IMG/VR virus record: IMGVR_UViG_3300025571_000022
Coordinates: 1 to 24,914 of that record
DNA from: a virus
Lineage: Duplodnaviria; Caudoviricetes
DNA: 24,914 nt
Reading direction: 5' to 3' (one strand)
The notes below the pieces were generated by a model. That model had not been told where the DNA came from and made no database searches. It saw only the letters and a program-made list of their open reading frames with translations. Both the position numbers and the translations under genes were made by a program. Shown here one piece after another: positions 2,645 to 22,386 of this stretch; position 1 is the first letter of the stretch; each line of letters opens with the position of its first letter.

Positions 2645-3306
2645 GCGCGGCATCTTTCATCGCCCAAATCGCCCCGATCGCCGTCCAACTGCGCATTGAA
2701 GGATCGCCGATCTTCCCGTCGGTCCGGATCGCGCAGGCGGGGCTGGAGACCGGCTGGAAAATCCCGGCCTGGAACAACCTCGGCGGCTACAAGGTCGGCA
2801 GCGGCAAGCTCACACCGTACTGGCGCGGCAAGGTCGTCAATAAAGGCACATGGGAAGTGTACGACGGCGAGCGCGTGGATGTGACGGCCGCATTCCGGGC
2901 GTATGACAGCGTGGAGGATTTCTTCCGGGATCAAGACCTGCTCTTCCAACTCCCGCGCTATGAGCGCGTGCGGACGGCGAAGACGCCCGAGGAGCAGGCC
3001 GAAGCGCTCCGGCTCTGTGGCTATGCCACGGATCCGGAATACGGTCTCAAGCTGTGCAACATCATCAGCATGTACCGGCTGGAAAAATACGACGAGGAGG
3101 CATGGAAGGTGCTCCAGGAGATCAAGGATCTGAAAAGGAAAGTCGAAGAGCTCGAGAAGCAGCAGGAACGCATCCCGGCGCCGGCGTGGTTCGTCCAGCA
3201 GTTCGGCAGTGCCGATCTCGGCGGCCTGATCAGCGATCCGCATTTCAGCCTCGAGGGCTGGCGGACGCTGGCCGTGGCGCTGCGGGCGCAGAAGGCCCAG
3301 AAATGA
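2641..3306 (+). CDS. Endolysin, GH73 glucosaminidase
   Basis: AQAGLETGW, NNLGGYK, FRAYDS, GYATDPEY motifs; ATG 2641 overlaps the holin stop. Confidence 0.9.
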   Translation: MSAASFIAQIAPIAVQLRIEGSPIFPSVRIAQAGLETGWKIPAWNNLGGYKVGSGKLTPYWRGKVVNKGTWEVYDGERVDVTAAFRAYDSVEDFFRDQDLLFQLPRYERVRTAKTPEEQAEALRLCGYATDPEYGLKLCNIISMYRLEKYDEEAWKVLQEIKDLKRKVEELEKQQERIPAPAWFVQQFGSADLGGLISDPHFSLEGWRTLAVALRAQKAQK

Positions 3307-3545: not shown

Positions 3546-4081
3546 TCCCCCGAGGGTTCCACCCGGATGCTCAGGCGGTCCGGGAACGCGCTTGCCACCT
3601 CAATACCTCTGTCGCGGAGCCGCTGCTCGAGCTCGATCGCATTCGCCGGCGTCTTGAGCCGGATTTGCCGTGCCGGAAACGTCCGTTCAGCCTGTTTGCC
3701 ATAAATGCTGCCCTTCGTGTCAGCGAATACCGGCGAGATGTCGTCCTCGGTCAGCCCATACTCCGCCACCAGCTCGTCCCATTCCTGCGCCGTGATCGGC
3801 CGGCCCAGCTCCACCGGGTACCCTCCGCGCGGAATCAGACCGCAGATCCAATATTGCCACGCGCCGGCCGGGCGGTACCAGTCCTCACCAATTTTTTTCC
3901 TGTACGGCTGGAGGTCTTTCTCCTGCAGGTTGACGATCTCTTGATTCATCCGCGTGTAGGTGTTGATTTTGAACCATTCACCGCCGATCCTGATGATGAC
4001 GTGGTTGGGGAGTGCCGGATCATACACCATTTCGTCGACGACCAGCTTGCCGTTGACATATTCGAGAATTGGCACGATCAA
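3542..4081 (-). CDS. Hypothetical protein, 179 aa
   Basis: TTG start after GAAAGGA; stop overlaps next start. Confidence 0.75.
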   Translation of the reverse strand: MIVPILEYVNGKLVVDEMVYDPALPNHVIIRIGGEWFKINTYTRMNQEIVNLQEKDLQPYRKKIGEDWYRPAGAWQYWICGLIPRGGYPVELGRPITAQEWDELVAEYGLTEDDISPVFADTKGSIYGKQAERTFPARQIRLKTPANAIELEQRLRDRGIEVASAFPDRLSIRVEPSGE

Positions 4082-12959: not shown

Positions 12960-13700
12960 ATGAGCCAAAGTGCAACGAGCGTCGTAACGGGCGAAGTGCG
13001 TCTGAGCTACGTCAATCTGTTCCAACCGCGCGCAGCGCAACAGGGTGGAGAGCCGAAGTACAGCGTGACGATCCTGCTGCCGAAGAGTGACACGGCGACA
13101 TACAACCGGATTCAAGCGGCAATCCAGGCGGCGTACGAAAAGGGCGTGACCGAGAAGTGGAACGGTGCGCGGCCGCCGCTCAAAACGACGATCCACGACG
13201 GCGACAGCGTGCGGCCGAGCGGCGAGCCGTTTGGGCCGGAGTGCCGCGGGCATTGGGTGTTTACGGCCAGCAGCAAACAGCAGCCGGAGATCGTGGACGC
13301 GCAGCTCAACCCAATCATTGACCAGTCGAAGGTCTACAGCGGCGTTTATGGCCGGGTGCATGTCAATTTCTTCGCTTACTCGCAGTCCGGTAACCGCGGC
13401 ATCGCTGCCGGCCTCGGCCCGGTGCAGATCCTGCGCGACGGCGAGCCGCTCGGCGGCCGCGTATCGGCAGCCGATGCGTTCGGTGCCGCTCCGGCGTCGG
13501 CAGCTCCGCCGGCATACGGCCAGCCGGGGGTGAATATGCCGCCCGCGGCCCAGCCGCAAGGGTACGGTCAGCCGGCTCCCGGTTATGGGCAGTCTGCCGC
13601 GCCGCAGCCTCCGGCATACGGCCAGCCGGCGCCGCAACCGCCGCAGCAAATTGATCCTATCACCGGGCAGCCGCTGGGCGGCGGCATCTACGGGATCTGA
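12960..13700 (+). CDS. DUF2815 single-stranded DNA-binding protein
   Basis: VVTGEVRLSY, PKYSVTILLPKSD, VYSGVY, DGEPLGG; P/Q/YGQ-repeat tail. Confidence 0.9.
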   Translation: MSQSATSVVTGEVRLSYVNLFQPRAAQQGGEPKYSVTILLPKSDTATYNRIQAAIQAAYEKGVTEKWNGARPPLKTTIHDGDSVRPSGEPFGPECRGHWVFTASSKQQPEIVDAQLNPIIDQSKVYSGVYGRVHVNFFAYSQSGNRGIAAGLGPVQILRDGEPLGGRVSAADAFGAAPASAAPPAYGQPGVNMPPAAQPQGYGQPAPGYGQSAAPQPPAYGQPAPQPPQQIDPITGQPLGGGIYGI

Positions 13701-14224
13701 TGAGTGTGGAGATCTGGAAAGACATTCCGGGATATGAGGGGCAATATCAAGCGAGCACGCTCGGCCGAATTCGAAGTGTCGATCGCCAAATAACCCAAAT
13801 GGGCCGTTTCGGAAAGCCTTTTACCAGAACGATGAAGGGGCGCGTTCTGCGCCCCGGGCGCTACTGCAAAAGCGGCCATGTGTCAGTCACACTGGGAAAA
13901 GGAGCGTTTGGAAAACCTGTACACCAGCTCGTCATGCTTACCTTTGTTGGGCCGCCGCCAATGGGTATGGAAGTAAGGCACTTGAACGGAGACCCGACAG
14001 ATAACCGGCTCTGCAATCTTGCTTATGGCACGAGATCTGAAAACATCCTCGACGTGTACCGCATCGGAAAACGCTGGAGGAAGCTCTCGAAAGCAGAAGC
14101 CCTCGAGATTAAGAGGCGTCTTGCTGCTGGTGAATCTGGCGCAGCACTTTCTAGGGAATTTGGCGTGTCCGAAACTTCGATTTCTAGGTTGAAGGTTGGT
14201 GTTACATTCCAGTGGCTAGGTTGA
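13700..14224 (+). CDS. NUMOD4-HNH homing endonuclease
   Basis: EIWKDIPGYEGQYQASTLGRIRS; VHQLV...VRHLNGDPTDNRLCNL; C-terminal HTH. Confidence 0.92.
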   Translation: MSVEIWKDIPGYEGQYQASTLGRIRSVDRQITQMGRFGKPFTRTMKGRVLRPGRYCKSGHVSVTLGKGAFGKPVHQLVMLTFVGPPPMGMEVRHLNGDPTDNRLCNLAYGTRSENILDVYRIGKRWRKLSKAEALEIKRRLAAGESGAALSREFGVSETSISRLKVGVTFQWLG

Positions 14225-16185: not shown

Positions 16186-16203
16186 AGATGAAGGGGATTG
16201 AGG

Positions 16204-17508
16204 ATGAAACAACTCGATCTATTCGCAGGTATCGGAGGGATCAGCCTGGCCGCAGAATGGGCCGGGATTGAAACAATAGCATTTTGCGAAAAAGAGTCAT
16301 TCTGCCAGAAAGTTCTCCGTGCCAGGTTTCCCGGCAGGCCGATTTATGACGACGTTTTTGATCTGACGGCGGAGGTGTTGCGAAAAGATGGAATCGACAA
16401 AATTGATATCGTCTCAGGGGGGTTCCCCTGCCAACCATTTAGCCACGCTGGCAAACGAACCGGAACAGCTGACGATCGATATCTTTGGCCTGAAATGTTC
16501 CGAATCATCGGAGAAATCAAACCCTCTTGGGTTGTTGCTGAAAATGTTGAGGGGCTCATCAGTATGGCGCAGTCAAATTGGAAGCCTGTCATGGAAGACG
16601 AAGCAGTTGTATGCGAAGAGGCGGAGATGGTGCTCGAAACAATCCGGAAAGACCTTGAAAAAGCAGGATACCAATCCGTCCCAATTGTTATACCGGCTGC
16701 AGCTGTCGGTGCCTCGCATCGAAGATACCGGGTCTTCATTGTGGCCCACAGTTACGGCGACAGCGGGGGACGGTCGAAGCGAACAAGACCCCGAGGTTTG
16801 GAAGGCCAGGTACGACCGGACGCTGGCGGAGAAGGGGATACGGAATGGATTGCCGATCAATGTGGCAGTCAAGATGTGGCCGACCCCGCGGGCAAACGAT
16901 GCGGAGAAGCGCGGGGACGTATCGGACGACCCCAGGAATGGGCTGCCGGGCGCAGTGAAATTGTGGCCGACACCACAAGCACACGACGCGAAGCCAGGTT
17001 CAGCGGACAGAGTGGGGAGATTCGGGTCGAAGCACGGCGGACGAAACCTGAACGATTATGTGATGCTTTGGCCCACACCAACGACGAACGACGCGAAGAA
17101 TGCCACACTCCCGCCAGCAGCGAAAGATTGGGATATCATCCCTGGGGCGTTGATGCGGGAAGGGTACACATCGCAGGAGGGGCAACTGAATCCAGAATGG
17201 GTGGAGGTGCTGATGAACTTTCCGCTTGGTTGGACGGACGTGGAATGAATCCGCTGGATGCGCTGAAAGGCTTCATCGACGCCTACCCGCAGCCTGCGCT
17301 CATGGGTCAGCCGCAGCACGAGTGGGAGCCCCCGAGGGTGGCAACGGGCGTGAAAAACCGGGCGGCGCGGCTGAAAGCGCTCGGGAACGCGGTTGATCCG
17401 TTGCAAGTATTCCCTATCTTTTATGGTATTCGCACCATCCATGATTATCTCTCGCAGGGGATGCTGAGGTGCCGCTTAAACGACATCGTCGCAAAGGATG
17501 ACCAATAA
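16204..17508 (+). CDS. C5-cytosine DNA methyltransferase, catalytic polypeptide (no recognisable motif IX)
   Basis: Motif I DLFAGIGG, IV GGFPCQPFS, VI ENV, VIII HRRYRVF, X RLKALGNAV. Confidence 0.9.
   Translation: MKQLDLFAGIGGISLAAEWAGIETIAFCEKESFCQKVLRARFPGRPIYDDVFDLTAEVLRKDGIDKIDIVSGGFPCQPFSHAGKRTGTADDRYLWPEMFRIIGEIKPSWVVAENVEGLISMAQSNWKPVMEDEAVVCEEAEMVLETIRKDLEKAGYQSVPIVIPAAAVGASHRRYRVFIVAHSYGDSGGRSKRTRPRGLEGQVRPDAGGEGDTEWIADQCGSQDVADPAGKRCGEARGRIGRPQEWAAGRSEIVADTTSTRREARFSGQSGEIRVEARRTKPERLCDALAHTNDERREECHTPASSERLGYHPWGVDAGRVHIAGGATESRMGGGADELSAWLDGRGMNPLDALKGFIDAYPQPALMGQPQHEWEPPRVATGVKNRAARLKALGNAVDPLQVFPIFYGIRTIHDYLSQGMLRCRLNDIVAKDDQ
16388..17248 (+). CDS. Overlapping-frame second methyltransferase polypeptide with four WPT(P/V) modules and motif IX-like end
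   Basis: GGAGGTG (16371-77) before ATG; 286 codons open; LWPTV, MWPTP, LWPTP, LWPTP; GQLNPEWVEVLMNFPLGWT. Confidence 0.75.
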   Translation: MESTKLISSQGGSPANHLATLANEPEQLTIDIFGLKCSESSEKSNPLGLLLKMLRGSSVWRSQIGSLSWKTKQLYAKRRRWCSKQSGKTLKKQDTNPSQLLYRLQLSVPRIEDTGSSLWPTVTATAGDGRSEQDPEVWKARYDRTLAEKGIRNGLPINVAVKMWPTPRANDAEKRGDVSDDPRNGLPGAVKLWPTPQAHDAKPGSADRVGRFGSKHGGRNLNDYVMLWPTPTTNDAKNATLPPAAKDWDIIPGALMREGYTSQEGQLNPEWVEVLMNFPLGWTDVE

Positions 17509-19940
17509 TGCTCTACAACCGAGAGCTGACCATATCCACCGCCGGCGACCGGCACAGCACAAACTGGCAGAATCAAACCATCTGGTGGTCCGAGCTCATC
17601 GAGCGCCTGCGCGTGACCGTGCGCGGCACGGAGACGCTGGCCGAGTATCTGGCACTGCCCAAACGCCAGCAGGACGATCTCAAGGACATCGGCGGCTTCG
17701 TCGGCGGTGCGCTGAATGGCCGTCGCCGCAAGGCGTCCGCTGTCGCCGGTCGCGACCTCATCACACTCGACATTGACACCATCCCGCCGTTTGGAACGGA
17801 CGACGTGCTGCGGCGGATCGACGGCCTCGGCTGTGCTTACGTCGTCTATTCCACCCGCAAGCACTCGCCGGACCGGCCGCGGTTACGCCTGATCGTGCCG
17901 ACGGATCGTACGATGACGCCGGACGAATACGAGCCGATCGCGCGCAAGCTGGCCGAAATGATCGGCATCGAAATGTGCGATCCGACGACGTTCCAAGTGA
18001 CGCGGCTCATGTACTGGCCGAGCTGCTGCGCGGACAGCCAATACATCTACCATTACGGCGACAAGCCGTTCCTGAGCGCGGACGGCATGCTGGCGCTCTA
18101 TGCAGACTGGCGCGACTGGATGAGCTGGCCGCAGGTGCCGGGCGCCGACGCCCAGCACGTCCGCCTGGCCGCGAAGCAAGGAGATCCGCACACCAAGCCG
18201 GGAGTCGTCGGGGCGTTCTGCCGGCAGTACGACGTGCTGACAGCCATAGAGACGTTCCTGCCGGGCGTCTACGCACCCACGGACGACCCGACGCGCTGGA
18301 CGTACGCGGCCGGCAGCACAACCGGCGGCGCGGTGATCTACGATGACGGCAAGTTCCTGTACAGCCACCACGCCACTGACCCGTGCAGCGGCCGCCTGGT
18401 CAACGCCTTTGACCTCGTGCGCCTGCACAAGTTCAGCGACCTGGACGATGACGCAGCGCCCGGAACGCCGACCAACAGGTTGCCATCTTACAGCGCAATG
18501 GTCGCCTTCGCGCTGCAGGATGCCGGCGTGGCAGCCGCCATGCAGCAGGAGCGGTACGAACGCGCGGTCGAGGCGTTCCAGAGCGCGGTACCGGCCGGCG
18601 GCCTGCCCGGCGCCGGCGAGCAGCCGGCAGAGCAGAGCACGGACTGGATTCGCCTGCTGGAGCTCAGCCCGACCACGGGCCGGCCGGCGAAGACGCCGTA
18701 CAACATCCTGACGCTTCTCCGCCACGACCCGGCGGTGGCCGGCAAAATCTACCGCGACACGTTCGCGGAGCGGATCATGGGCCGCGGTCCGTTGCCGTGG
18801 GCCCGCCGCGCCAATACGCACGGCACGTTCGTCTGGGACGACTCGGACGACAACGGGCTCGGATTGTACGTCGATCGCGTGCTCGGCTTCAGTTCGGAGC
18901 GCCCGCTGCGCATGGCGCTGTCCGAAATCGCTGAAGCAAACGCGATCAACCCGGTAGCCGCGTATCTGGAGAGTCTCACCTGGGACGGTGTTCCGCGGCT
19001 TGATACCATCTATATCGACTATTTCGGCGCGGAGGATTGCCCGTTCGTCCGGGCTGTCGCCAGAAAGGCGTTGGTGGCGGCCGTCGCACGAGCGATGATC
19101 GGAAAAGTCAAGTTCGACTACATGACAGTCTTGTACAGCCAGCAGCAGGGGATCGGCAAGTCTACGCTTTTCCGCCGCCTGGGTAAAGAGTGGTTCACGG
19201 ACAGTATCAAGTCCTTCGAGGGCAAGGAGGCCGAGGAGCTCATACAGGGCAAATGGATCGTCGAGATCGCGGAGCTGCAGGCGTTCAACCGGGTCGACAT
19301 CAACCGGATCAAGCAGTTCCTGAGCAAAGAGGACGACCAGTACCGCGAGGCTTACGGTCGGAATGTGAAGAACCAGATTCGGCGTGCGGTTTTCTTCGGC
19401 ACGACCAATGACCACGAATATCTCCATGACCCGACGGGGAACCGCCGATTCTGGCCGATTGATGCACGGCCGGAGAAAGCGACCAAAAACGTTTTTCGGG
19501 ATCTCACCGAATACGAGATTGACCAAATATGGGCCGAGGCCGTCGTTCGGTGGCGGGAAGGTGAGGCGCTGTATCTGTCTCCAGAGCTGGAGGCCGAGGC
19601 GGAGCGGCGCCGTCAGGAGCACATGGTACGGGATCCGCTGGAGGGCATTATCGAGGAGTTTCTGGAGCGGCCTGTGCCGGAAGACTGGCTGAAGTGGGAT
19701 CTGGAGCGCCGCATGATCTTCTGGGGCGGCGGGATGCAGTACAATGGGCCGCTGGTTCGCCGGGACCGCGTTTGCGCGGCCGAAATCTGGCGGGAATGCC
19801 TGGGCGAGCGCAAGGCCATCCCGCGGCAGGACGCCGCCCGGATCAATGCCGTCCTTTCAAAGATGAAAGGCTGGAGGCGGGCCGGAGTGATCCGGATCGG
19901 CGCGAACTACGGCAGCCAAAAAGGGTTTGTGCGCGAATGA
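17508..19940 (+). CDS. VapE-like primase-helicase
   Basis: AEP-like LDID/YSTRKH/RLRL; Walker A QQGIGKST; EIAEL; FFGTTN..YLHDPTGNRRFW. Confidence 0.92.
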   Translation: MLYNRELTISTAGDRHSTNWQNQTIWWSELIERLRVTVRGTETLAEYLALPKRQQDDLKDIGGFVGGALNGRRRKASAVAGRDLITLDIDTIPPFGTDDVLRRIDGLGCAYVVYSTRKHSPDRPRLRLIVPTDRTMTPDEYEPIARKLAEMIGIEMCDPTTFQVTRLMYWPSCCADSQYIYHYGDKPFLSADGMLALYADWRDWMSWPQVPGADAQHVRLAAKQGDPHTKPGVVGAFCRQYDVLTAIETFLPGVYAPTDDPTRWTYAAGSTTGGAVIYDDGKFLYSHHATDPCSGRLVNAFDLVRLHKFSDLDDDAAPGTPTNRLPSYSAMVAFALQDAGVAAAMQQERYERAVEAFQSAVPAGGLPGAGEQPAEQSTDWIRLLELSPTTGRPAKTPYNILTLLRHDPAVAGKIYRDTFAERIMGRGPLPWARRANTHGTFVWDDSDDNGLGLYVDRVLGFSSERPLRMALSEIAEANAINPVAAYLESLTWDGVPRLDTIYIDYFGAEDCPFVRAVARKALVAAVARAMIGKVKFDYMTVLYSQQQGIGKSTLFRRLGKEWFTDSIKSFEGKEAEELIQGKWIVEIAELQAFNRVDINRIKQFLSKEDDQYREAYGRNVKNQIRRAVFFGTTNDHEYLHDPTGNRRFWPIDARPEKATKNVFRDLTEYEIDQIWAEAVVRWREGEALYLSPELEAEAERRRQEHMVRDPLEGIIEEFLERPVPEDWLKWDLERRMIFWGGGMQYNGPLVRRDRVCAAEIWRECLGERKAIPRQDAARINAVLSKMKGWRRAGVIRIGANYGSQKGFVRE

Positions 19941-20210: not shown

Positions 20211-20492
20211 ATGAGAGAGAAGAGCATCGAGACGTACCTCCGGGAGCAGGTGCGCAAAGCCGGCGGGGCAGCCATGAAGTGGGTCAGCCCCGGCAACAAC
20301 GGCGTCCCAGACCGGATTGTATTCCTGCCTGGTGGCCGGGTGGTTTTCGTCGAGCTGAAAGCACCGGGCCGGAAGCCGACGCAACTGCAGAAGTATCAGC
20401 ATGAGCGCCTGCGCGTGCTGGGCTGCGACGTGCGGGTGATCGACAGTCGTGAAGGCGTAGACGAGCTGATCGAGGAGCTGACGGGAGGCTGA
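20211..20492 (+). CDS. VRR-NUC domain nuclease
   Basis: MREKSIE, KWVSPGNNGVPDRIV, FVELKAPG. Confidence 0.92.
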   Translation: MREKSIETYLREQVRKAGGAAMKWVSPGNNGVPDRIVFLPGGRVVFVELKAPGRKPTQLQKYQHERLRVLGCDVRVIDSREGVDELIEELTGG

Positions 20493-20496
20493 TGGC

Positions 20497-21009
20497 ATGA
20501 TTGCAGTAACTTGCGCCTGGTGCGGAACGGGATTTCACATCAAGCCGAGCAAGGTGAAGGAGTCGAATTTCTGTTCCCGTGAATGCTATTTCAGGCACAA
20601 GGCCAGAAACCAGATCCGAACCATCTGTGAACAGTGCGGCAAACCGGTAGTAAAGCCGCCGTCGAAAGCGACGGAGCGAAATTTCTGCAGCCGCCAGTGC
20701 TTGATGAAAACCATCAACGTCGAATTGAACCCAACGCGCATGACCCCTGAAACCAGGCGGAAGCTGCGCGAAGCGAGACTGGGTTCAGGTGAAGGGAAGT
20801 CGTACGAGAAGACTTACGGCCGTCACACGCATCGAATTGTTGCCGAGCAGATGCTGGGCAGACCGCTTAAGCCTGGCGAAGTGGTACACCACATCAACGG
20901 CAACAAACGGGATAACCGTCCAGTGAATTTGCGCGTTTTCGCATCTCAAAAAGAGCATGCCGCATGGCATGTCGCCGAGGAAAGATTTTTCCGAGGTCAG
21001 AGGGGGTGA
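20497..21009 (+). CDS. Free-standing HNH homing endonuclease with two N-terminal Cys4 repeats
   Basis: CxxCG...FCSRxC twice; HRIVAE..LGRPL..GEVVHHINGNKRDNRPVNL. Confidence 0.88.
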   Translation: MIAVTCAWCGTGFHIKPSKVKESNFCSRECYFRHKARNQIRTICEQCGKPVVKPPSKATERNFCSRQCLMKTINVELNPTRMTPETRRKLREARLGSGEGKSYEKTYGRHTHRIVAEQMLGRPLKPGEVVHHINGNKRDNRPVNLRVFASQKEHAAWHVAEERFFRGQRG

Positions 21010-21013
21010 TGCC

Positions 21014-22386
21014 GTGGAAAAGTTCATACCGCACCCGTATCAAAGATATTGCATCCATCGCGTTGTGACGGATCCAATTCTCGGGTTGTTTTTGGATATG
21101 GGCTTAGGTTAGGAAAAACGGTTGTTTCTCTAACGGGGATTAACGATCTCATGTACAACCGGTTCAGCGTTCGGAAGACACTGGTTGTGGCGCCGAAGAA
21201 AGTCGCCGAAGCCACCTGGACGGATGAGGCGGCGCGGTGGGAACATCTACGGTTGCTGCGAGTGCAGACGGTCCTGGGGACGGAGCGGCAGCGGCTGCGA
21301 GCGCTGGCGACGCCGGCGGATATCTACGTGATTGGCCGGGACAATCTGCAATGGCTTGTCGATCATTACCGACAGGCGTGGCCGTTCGATATGGTGGTGC
21401 TGGACGAGCTCAGCAGCTTTAAAAATCCGAGCTCCAACCGGTTCAAGGCCATGCGGCGCGTCCGGCCGAAGATTCAGCGCGTGTTGGGACTGACCGGCAC
21501 GCCGGCGCCGAACGGGCTGATGGACTTGTGGGCGCAGGTGTACCTGCTGGACCAGGGGCAGCGGCTGTATCCGCGATTCGAGCAGTACAAGGAGCGGTAT
21601 TTCAGCAAGGCGACATGGCTTGATTATCCCAAATACGACGTCAAGGCCGGCGCGGAGGACGCGATCAAGCGGGCCATTGAGGACATCTGCATCAGCATGA
21701 AGGCGGAGGATTATCTGGAGCTGCCGGAGTTGGTGCAGAACCGGATCCCGGTGGAGCTGGACGCGAAGGCGCGGCAGGCGTACCGGGATTTCGAGCGCAA
21801 GCAGGTGCTGGAGCTGGACGGCGAAGTCATCACCGCCGCCCAGGCGGCCGCGGTCACGAACAAGCTGCTGCAGATGTGCGCCGGTGCCGTGTATGACGAA
21901 AACCGCGAAGTCCATGAGGTCCATGACGCGAAGATTGAGGCGTTTCTGGAGTTGGTCGAGAGCCTGCAAGGCAAGCCACTGCTGACGTTCTATGGCTTCC
22001 AGCATGATCGGGATCGGATCATGCAGGCGCTGCGGAAGCACAAGGGGCTGGAAGTTCGGGAACTGAAGGGGCCGGAAGACTACGCGGACTGGAATGCGCG
22101 GAAGATTCATGTCGGCCTGGCGCACCCGGCCAGCACGGCGTACGGCCTGAATCTTCAACGAGGCGGCAATCATATCTGCTGGTTCACCTTGCCCTGGTCG
22201 CTGGAGCTGTACGAGCAGGCCCAGAAGCGGCTTCACAGGCAGGGACAGGAGGAACGGGTGATCGAGCATTTCCTGATGGTTCGGGATTCAATGGATGAAG
22301 AAGTCGCGAAGCGCCTTGAGAGCAAGGCGAAGACGCAACAGGCGCTGATCGACGCACTGAAGGCGCGGATCGAAAAAGCGGCGTGA
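21014..22386 (+). CDS. SNF2-family helicase interrupted at Walker A by a 5-nt duplication (recoded gene, pseudogene or assembly error)
   Basis: GTG 21014 with GGGGGTG RBS gives MEKFIPHPYQ...LFLDMGLG* (TAG 21110-12); other frame continues LGKT...DELSS...LTGTP...YGLNLQ...RLHRQGQ; removing one TTAGG restores DMGLGKT, about 455 aa. Confidence 0.85.

Follow-up and report, generated by a model that had tools for sequence, protein, structure and literature searches.

The window, i.e., the whole stretch of 24,914 nucleotides analyzed here, comprises positions 1 to 24,914 of a 24.9-kb virus record that is 53% complete. Genes for a serine recombinase, a repressor, a DNA polymerase A, a VapE-type primase, a VRR-NUC nuclease, an HNH endonuclease and an SNF2-type helicase are present, and from this content the phage is read as temperate. 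Its relatives among named genomes are nearly all from Bacillota (first 80 record titles listed, three MAGs being labelled otherwise). A C-5 cytosine methyltransferase gene (16198-17508) lies between the polymerase and primase genes. Besides the HNH gene there is a second free-standing nuclease gene, of the NUMOD4-HNH-HTH type (13700-14224), which overlaps the 5' end of the polymerase A gene and may represent a further homing cassette that has a tract of its own. The features of the helicase locus are listed in Table 1.

Table 1. Features of the interrupted helicase gene and its neighbors, in window coordinates.
Feature	Position	Strand	Basis or remark
VapE-type primase/helicase gene	17508..19940	+	PF05272; conserved neighbor; replication-module context
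VRR-NUC nuclease gene (host backbone)	20211..20492	+	PF08774 (weak); phrog_93; precedes the helicase in relatives
Free-standing HNH endonuclease gene, 170 aa	20497..21009	+	PF13392, E 2e-14; phrog_1271; motifs
Putative mobile cassette: HNH gene and replacement helicase 5' end with gap	20497..21141	+	comparison with L007 and L001
Helicase ORF1, 32 codons to DMGLG, then TAG	21014..21112	+	starts at GTG 21014; phrog_62 positions 692-721; dN/dS 0.06 against L006
Conserved context GAT ATG GGC TTA GGT, candidate cis signal	21095..21109	+	5' of the stop; ATG 21098-21100, GGC 21101-21103, TTA 21104-21106
Predicted take-off codon GGT (Gly 32)	21107..21109	+	GGT/GGC in 112/115 interrupted genes
5-nt coding gap TAGGA	21110..21114	+	TAG 21110-21112 overlaps the predicted landing triplet GGA 21112-21114
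Helicase ORF2, 423 aa, beginning with the Walker A lysine	21115..22386	+	PF00176; phrog_62, E 2e-149; motifs DELS, TGTP, RLHRQGQ

The helicase gene, the sole SNF2 match within this record, is interrupted in its Walker A motif. The preliminary description had given a GTG start at 21014, DMGLG followed by TAG, a pair of TTAGG copies (21104-21108 and 21109-21113) and a lysine-threonine continuation in another frame, and all of these coordinates proved right when the sequence was re-read; the HNH gene also ends, as it had stated, 4 nt ahead of the GTG. The stop follows immediately on the predicted take-off codon, as it does throughout the interrupted set, and the lysine codon AAA (21115-21117) lies in a different frame from ORF1, a frame that stays open to 22386. 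The phrog_62 profile runs contiguously over the gap, with positions 692-721 in ORF1 and 720-1142 in ORF2, and if joined the two parts give a full helicase of 455 aa (32 + 423).

The interruption is no assembly slip. It is present without indel in contigs (contigs, not raw reads) of all four DNA runs, runs with a small share having been left out, and the gap-bearing contigs differ from the window by 7 letters in X2, 16 in 173 in X3 and 14 in 265 in X4; X1 may itself be the source of the window and is not surely independent. A second metagenome contig (L854) also carries the window's gap, and the relative L006 keeps the interruption with an altered first copy, TTGGG TTAGG. Because L006 carries this non-identical version, the exact tandem duplication is considered incidental and peculiar to the window allele, and the general form of the interruption, as read from the sequences, is GGY, a stop, a few further bases, and then AAR ACN.

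Interrupted Helicases in Other Phages

Pattern scans across SNF2-type helicases recovered interruptions at two sites of the Walker A motif, with 320 distinct junctions in total (259 + 61 contexts after filtering). The main scan was anchored on FLDMGLG plus TRR only, with the downstream side unconstrained; it listed 120 loci, and about 330 interrupted stretches are estimated from 24 of the 64 parts. The intact motif is estimated, from 3 of the 64 parts, to occur in about 2600 stretches, so that roughly 11% (about 1 in 9) would be interrupted at the main site, both figures being estimates. Profile matches identified 115 of the 120 listed loci as helicases, and four of the remaining five had the same shape by eye. 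Reading resumed on lysine-threonine in 115/115, after gaps of 1, 4, 5, 6, 7, 8, 9, 10 or 12 nt that span all three frames, including in-frame 6-nt gaps in 30/115. At least 40 distinct gap sequences occur at one site, of which TAGGA, the type found in the window, is the commonest among interrupted helicases. Within species-representative genomes about 170 stretches were found, and 116 of the 120 listed were confirmed.

The second site follows the first glycine of the motif. Its scan gave 102 matches, 91 of them profile-confirmed; eight were false and 83 loci were left, the pattern itself having forced a GGN landing. These eight site-A matches, intact genes that had been translated out of frame, were dropped before the counts, as were L405 and three divergent loci of site B whose upstream scores were too low but which are probably real; L405 and L420 have the normal spacing of 24 residues. 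Long gaps at the first glycine were real in one of 56 matches (L101). A scan for gaps that do not begin with T returned 47 matches, of which 24 were confirmed as helicases, mostly with CCA, CCG, CTG, AGG or CTA first. In L574, L578 and L648, a 4-nt stop-led gap precedes lysine-threonine in a gene that resembles a helicase (KTPTSLALAEV) but has no match to the profile. One-base versions, CTT CGG C and GGG TAA, were seen in L081 (~3580), L094 (~3535, identical with L623) and L647, and resemble +1 shift sites.

The frame after the gap extends over at least 380 residues in 70 of 72 full-length interrupted loci, compared with 76 of 79 intact genes. For 66 non-overlapping pairs that share a gap, dN/dS was 0.12 upstream and 0.06-0.08 downstream, and for 27 intact pairs it was 0.09 and 0.07-0.10, respectively; between the window and L006 it was 0.06 on either side of the gap. 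The interrupted helicase gene is thus alive, with both halves under purifying selection. A tree built from the sequence downstream of the gap, with 238 representatives among which gaps are enriched, shows interrupted and intact genes interleaved, with 43 state changes against a mean of 90.5 after shuffling. The window is the sister of the intact L001 on this tree, and gap lengths from 4 to 10 alternate inside one large clade with few intact members. Because gaps recur at the same loop while the helicase stays under purifying selection, ribosomes likely hop over them.

Sequence Signals at the Junction

Among 115 interrupted genes, 103 have GGT and 9 have GGC as the codon before the gap; among 120 intact genes, the numbers are 27 and 45, respectively. 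The last triplet of the gap matched GGY at all three positions in 34/115 and at two in 81/115, never at fewer; among distinct gaps of at least 4 nt, 39/39 matched at two or more positions where 13.9 were expected. A glycine-like gap end would, however, also result if gaps were born from a split or duplicated glycine codon. The mismatched landing triplets were AGC, GAC, AGT and GGA, presumably the pattern to be expected of a tRNA with the anticodon GCC. Against the hop, GGT at take-off and GGA at landing agree in only two bases of three in the window, and a fully matching GGT stands 8 nt further on in a dead frame. Of the two 5-nt hops suggested in the preliminary description, GGT to GGA fits the family pattern, and TTA to TTA would be workable only in the window allele.

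A T following the stop favours termination in E. coli. It was the next base in 4 of 150 gaps, compared with 41 of 166 true stops of the same genes. The bias to stop or slow codons, the preference for GGT and the avoidance of T at +4 read as translation-level signals. The context GGC-(TTA|TTG|CTC)-GGY characterizes 104/115 of the interrupted genes and is present in 8/120 of the intact ones, with codons further upstream varying freely; it is either a cis signal or a mark of shared descent. With take-off at about codon 30, the nascent peptide would fill the tunnel.

The hairpin of GTTAG with CTAAC proposed earlier can form, yet it gave z values of 0.38, -0.48 and 0.12 against shuffles, was 2.0 kcal/mol weaker than synonymous shuffles, and is no family trait, since CTAAC occurs with 4/40 representatives of TAG gaps, with 5/93 of the remaining gaps and in 3/72 intact genes. 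The family as a whole showed no 3' structure (mean -0.01 kcal/mol, SE 0.20). Neither the window nor the family folding tests gave a take-off stem-loop with a stable tetraloop, the 44-nt member L101 being the only one to have it, and no mini-Shine-Dalgarno stands 5-7 nt ahead of the landing in the window, where the triplets are TTA, CTT and GCT; this lack of the T4 stimulators counts against the hop. Pairing of the gap with upstream codons was rejected, 73 of 300 permutations being equally stable. A mini-hairpin of 3-4 pairs over the take-off codon, GGC-NNNG-GYY, may serve as a lead; gaps beginning with CC or CT and the preference for TTA/CTC agree with it, and TTG does not. A changed genetic code was discarded as unable to repair a 5-nt shift, and transcriptional slippage because the sole A-run is past the stop.

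The long gap of L101 (~3730-3780, identical with L826) lies at the first glycine and measures 44 nt; its GGT codons match, its stop is TGA and its tail is rich in A. A hairpin of 10 pairs covers take-off and stop, as in the layout of T4 gene 60.

The HNH Gene and the Putative Cassette

The HNH protein consists of two Cys-rich repeats (CxxC...FCSxxC) and an HNH_3 domain, and a PDB search found no related solved structure. Homologs are located between the VRR-NUC and SNF2 genes, and the window gene shows the pattern of free-standing homing nucleases: it encodes an HNH domain, occurs patchily in a space between genes that are conserved, and has a co-converted flank. Its start context is that of the helicase in the empty allele L007. 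As far as 21141 the window departs from the intact L001, and beyond that point the two sequences agree. GC3 is 23/45 over the first 45 helicase codons, compared with 330/410 for the rest and 36/45 in an intact relative. The AT-rich co-conversion tract of about 45 codons noticed at the outset is supported by both this contrast and the boundary at 21141.

The same boundary appears in cultured phages. Bacillus phage Carmen17, which forms plaques, and Wes44 are 95% alike overall (PMC6430321). Carmen17 has the HNH gene and the gap, and Wes44 has neither; their identity is 0.73-0.83 before the gap, 0.77 over 30 bases past the lysine codon and then mostly 0.9-1.0. The tract thus ends about 30 nt beyond the lysine codon in both Carmen17/Wes44 and window/L001, and the cultured pair makes the bypass and homing readings testable. 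Gaps that are not annotated were found in Paenibacillus phage Pd_22F (5 nt), Carmen17 (10 nt) and Ruminococcus phage NatCom_29429 (4 nt), and two further gap-bearing phages come from animal-associated hosts. In eight cultured phages like PBC1, both HNH-bearing members are interrupted, PBC1 is interrupted without HNH, and five are intact. Bacillus phage PBC1 (L861, 613-640) has its gap at a third site, from Leu to Leu, with the in-frame CTT TAG CTA; a 9-nt gap with matched CTT was seen at this third site in L284 (S4-5, 2994-3020), and these two gaps are likewise unannotated.

By profile, an HNH gene lies upstream of 11/71 interrupted and 0/69 intact genes. After de-duplication the counts are 10/46 and 0/55 (p 2e-4), the sequences being related, so that p overstates independence. 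An alternative count of 44/158 interrupted against 0/61 intact, in which longer gaps were richer in HNH, was set aside because its intact set contains hand-picked relatives and omits the HNH-bearing intact L025/L026. Seen from the nuclease, homologs stand beside the SNF2 gene in 30/80 loci; HNH-led loci are interrupted in 18/30 (9/14 lineages by eye), compared with 1 of 78 readable helicase-led loci. The expected co-occurrence of gap and nuclease therefore held in one direction and loosely: 60/71 interrupted genes have no HNH and 12/30 HNH loci are uninterrupted, which means that the nuclease predicts the gap, the gap needs no nuclease, and immunity would have other routes. Eleven of the 12 intact HNH-bearing loci deviate from DMGLGKT (WEMGLGKS, LEMGLGKS, DLGMGKT, AGMGLGKT). 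HNH has been deleted in L006, in L854 and at a joint in run X1, and the gap is retained in L006 and L854.

At the same G|K bond, L026 (2377-3006) and also L025 have a solution without interruption, where the HNH gene and a new helicase 5' end are inserted exactly after the Walker A Gly codon and the old 5' end is left as a 30-codon stub. This insertion right at G|K marks the likely HNH target, and the three gap sites lie within 9 nt of it. L283 (Corynebacterium phage StAB), L095 and L096 bear HNH, are uninterrupted and have the motif LGMGKT instead of MGLGKT, a possible case of immunity by substitution.

Proposed Ribosome Hopping, Its Alternatives and Known Systems

The reading we regard as probable overall is that ribosomes hop over the gap to make the 455-residue helicase, and that the gap was spread as the self-protecting end of an HNH homing cassette. 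Taken by parts, bypass is quite likely the way in which the full helicase is made, and homing immunity is a likely origin of the gap. Once GGT occupies the P site and the stop the A site, the peptidyl-tRNA-Gly would detach, aided by the 15 nt ahead of the stop; after a slide of 5 nt it would pair again at GGA, through two of the three bases, and reading would resume at AAA (Lys). With such a hop and re-pairing, gap length and frame would become immaterial, and a hop is alone among the mechanisms in yielding the same MGLGKT whatever the length of the gap. On the DNA level, the HNH enzyme would nick intact alleles at or near Walker A, and repair would copy the nuclease, the new 5' end and the gap as one unit. 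The gap would prevent re-cutting while leaving the protein unchanged, and the nuclease would often be deleted later with the gap remaining. The minimal bypass and homing cassette suggested by the preliminary description passed every comparative test applied, namely recurrence, gap lengths independent of frame, Gly take-off and Gly-like landing, purifying selection on the two halves, association with HNH, and the boundaries of the tract.

Frame-specific recoding, in which a -1 slip serves 5-nt gaps, a +1 shift 4- and 7-nt gaps and readthrough 6- and 9-nt gaps, leaving one to three extra residues in the P-loop, is unlikely. The one-base versions GGG TAA and CTT CGG are ordinary +1 shift sites, the 30/115 in-frame 6-nt gaps are open to readthrough, and weak stop contexts suit both readings. 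However, lengths of all frames alternate in close relatives, so that three mechanisms would be needed instead of one hop; 4-nt gaps would give products with S or D ahead of K; the -1 slip in the window requires GGT to re-pair at AGG; and sense in-frame insertions were absent from the 47 matches of the scan for gaps not led by T, inserts starting with TC or TT lying outside it. It is less likely still that the gap is excised from the mRNA, by a tiny splice or RNA processing, before normal translation. Each gap can be written as an insertion within the Gly codon (GG^N) that precise removal would restore, and RNA across the junction was not seen, the RNA runs X20, X23 and X24 and the probable-DNA run X21 being uninformative as no listed piece spans the junction; gaps of 1-12 nt, however, contain no ribozyme, their ends vary (A, C or T), and the translation-level signals described above speak against it.

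A split gene is equally improbable, whether it gave a peptide of 32 residues and a C-terminal protein with its own start, or whether the downstream frame supplied another N-terminus. Annotators call the ORFs in this way, many gaps resemble a Shine-Dalgarno sequence (TAAGGA, TGAGG), and insertions of MobA and MobE yield split proteins that reassemble, according to the available part of 10.1101/2022.08.31.505936. Start codons within 6 codons of the lysine are nevertheless not commoner in interrupted (50/133) than in intact genes (27/72), the window allele has no start before ATG 21151, lysine-threonine is retained in 115/115, an upstream start for the downstream frame exists in only 32 of 100 out-of-frame cases, and added tails are absent. 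There is also little probability that bypass is real and homing is not, the gap being a control of helicase dose merely carried by HNH cassettes. This would suit the absence of HNH from 60/71 interrupted genes and the large clade with varied gaps and few intact members; against it stand the 0/69 intact genes with HNH, the higher share of HNH with longer gaps, and the clustering of gap sites at the L025/L026 bond. Finally, the preliminary description had allowed for an assembly error or a recent inactivating duplication, i.e., a pseudogene, and the exact 5-nt tandem duplication of the window allele, known from contigs only and not from raw reads, agrees with it. It is refuted by recurrence and selection, with the gap in 4/4 runs, in diverged relatives and in cultured plaque-forming phages and dN/dS near 0.1 on both sides, and has a negligible probability.

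To our knowledge, T4 gene 60 and its homologs supply most of the proof that bypassing occurs naturally on bacterial ribosomes. The T4 gene 60/MobA cassette, as presented in the available part of 10.1101/2022.08.31.505936 (which cites Bonocora 2011 for it), shares with the locus studied here an HNH gene, a replacement stretch of the target and a coding gap, as well as Gly take-off followed by a stop or the rare AGG and a gap placed in a conserved stretch; the T4 insert blocks nicking by MobA and outlives loss of the nuclease. A word search of the same available text for "helicase" gave nothing. The target here is the Walker A motif of an SNF2-type helicase in Bacillota phages, in contrast to the split topoisomerase with added tails of T4, and gaps measure 1-12 nt at three sites instead of 20-50 nt in the gene 60 family. 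Landing here is often two-of-three, without take-off stem-loop, mini-Shine-Dalgarno or split-gene tails, with one 44-nt member as the exception. The analogy with T4 thus stands for the layout of the cassette and for a gap that travels with the nuclease and a replaced 5' stretch; because it does not extend to gap size, host gene, stem-loop and mini-Shine-Dalgarno, the window element is not filed under T4 gene 60/MobA.

Synthetic stop-hops in E. coli (Weiss 1987) have matched codons flanking a stop, with 9 nt decoded as one residue, as related in the available portions of PMC5009743 and 10.1101/2024.12.09.627546. The in-frame 6-nt gaps (GGT TAA GGC; CTT TAG CTA in PBC1) are 9-nt stop-hops of this type and meet the definition, whereas the window allele spends 8 nt per residue and has a stop that overlaps the landing. 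We take CTT TAG CTA of PBC1 to equal the Weiss 1987 construct, for which a phrase search gave no text. The Weiss stop-hops are low-level and artificial, whereas the helicase gaps are natural, selected and found in all frames; natural in-frame stop-hops were not known to a 2016 review, in the part available (PMC5009743).

Among other systems, the terminase of Streptomyces phage Hau3 has a 10-nt bypass with mass spectrometry support in E. coli, likewise a short insert in a phage ATPase gene; it differs in a rare UUA trigger and a proposed role as growth-stage sensor, and the available text reports no nuclease link and contains neither "homing" nor "helicase" by word search (PMC10732093). The mitochondrial byps of Magnusiomyces are similar in their many short inserts, imperfect take-off and landing and little context, and differ in that mitochondrial ribosomes, relaxed decoding and unused codons are involved, in contrast to bacterial ribosomes and stop codons here (PMC5009743, in part). 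Free-standing HNH genes of the mob type are likewise intergenic, beside a conserved target gene and with co-conversion (PMC2988022, in part); the difference here is that immunity apparently comes from a translated-over gap in most lineages. The 2024 preprint, in its available part, counts gene 60, the phage terminase and Magnusiomyces as bypass cases (10.1101/2024.12.09.627546), and a possible mycobacteriophage primase case was added in 2025 (PMC12646305, in part). No account of bypass in these SNF2-type helicases was found in the open-access literature, supplements aside.

It is conceivable, though on balance doubtful, that the gaps form a common minimal bypass class on ordinary bacterial ribosomes, found in about one in nine of the phage helicases of this type. 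Its elements would need a context of 15 bases, a stop and from one to nine bases beyond it; they could vary in length and frame, would land on two of three pairs, would have originated in homing immunity, and would persist after loss of the nuclease because the hop adjusts helicase dose to the release-factor and tRNA state of the cell. With at least 40 gap sequences, the family offers a natural mutational series on what ribosomes need for take-off and landing, with cultured phages at hand. If the reading of hop and homing is true, the gap would be a third route, beside introns and inteins, for selfish nucleases into the P-loop, and bypassing would no longer be a peculiarity of T4 but part of the ordinary equipment of phage ATPase genes. 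The annotations of many phage helicases leave out the Walker A motif. A separate duplication was noticed in L003 (4682-4768), where the last 29 helicase codons recur about 500 nt downstream of the gene.
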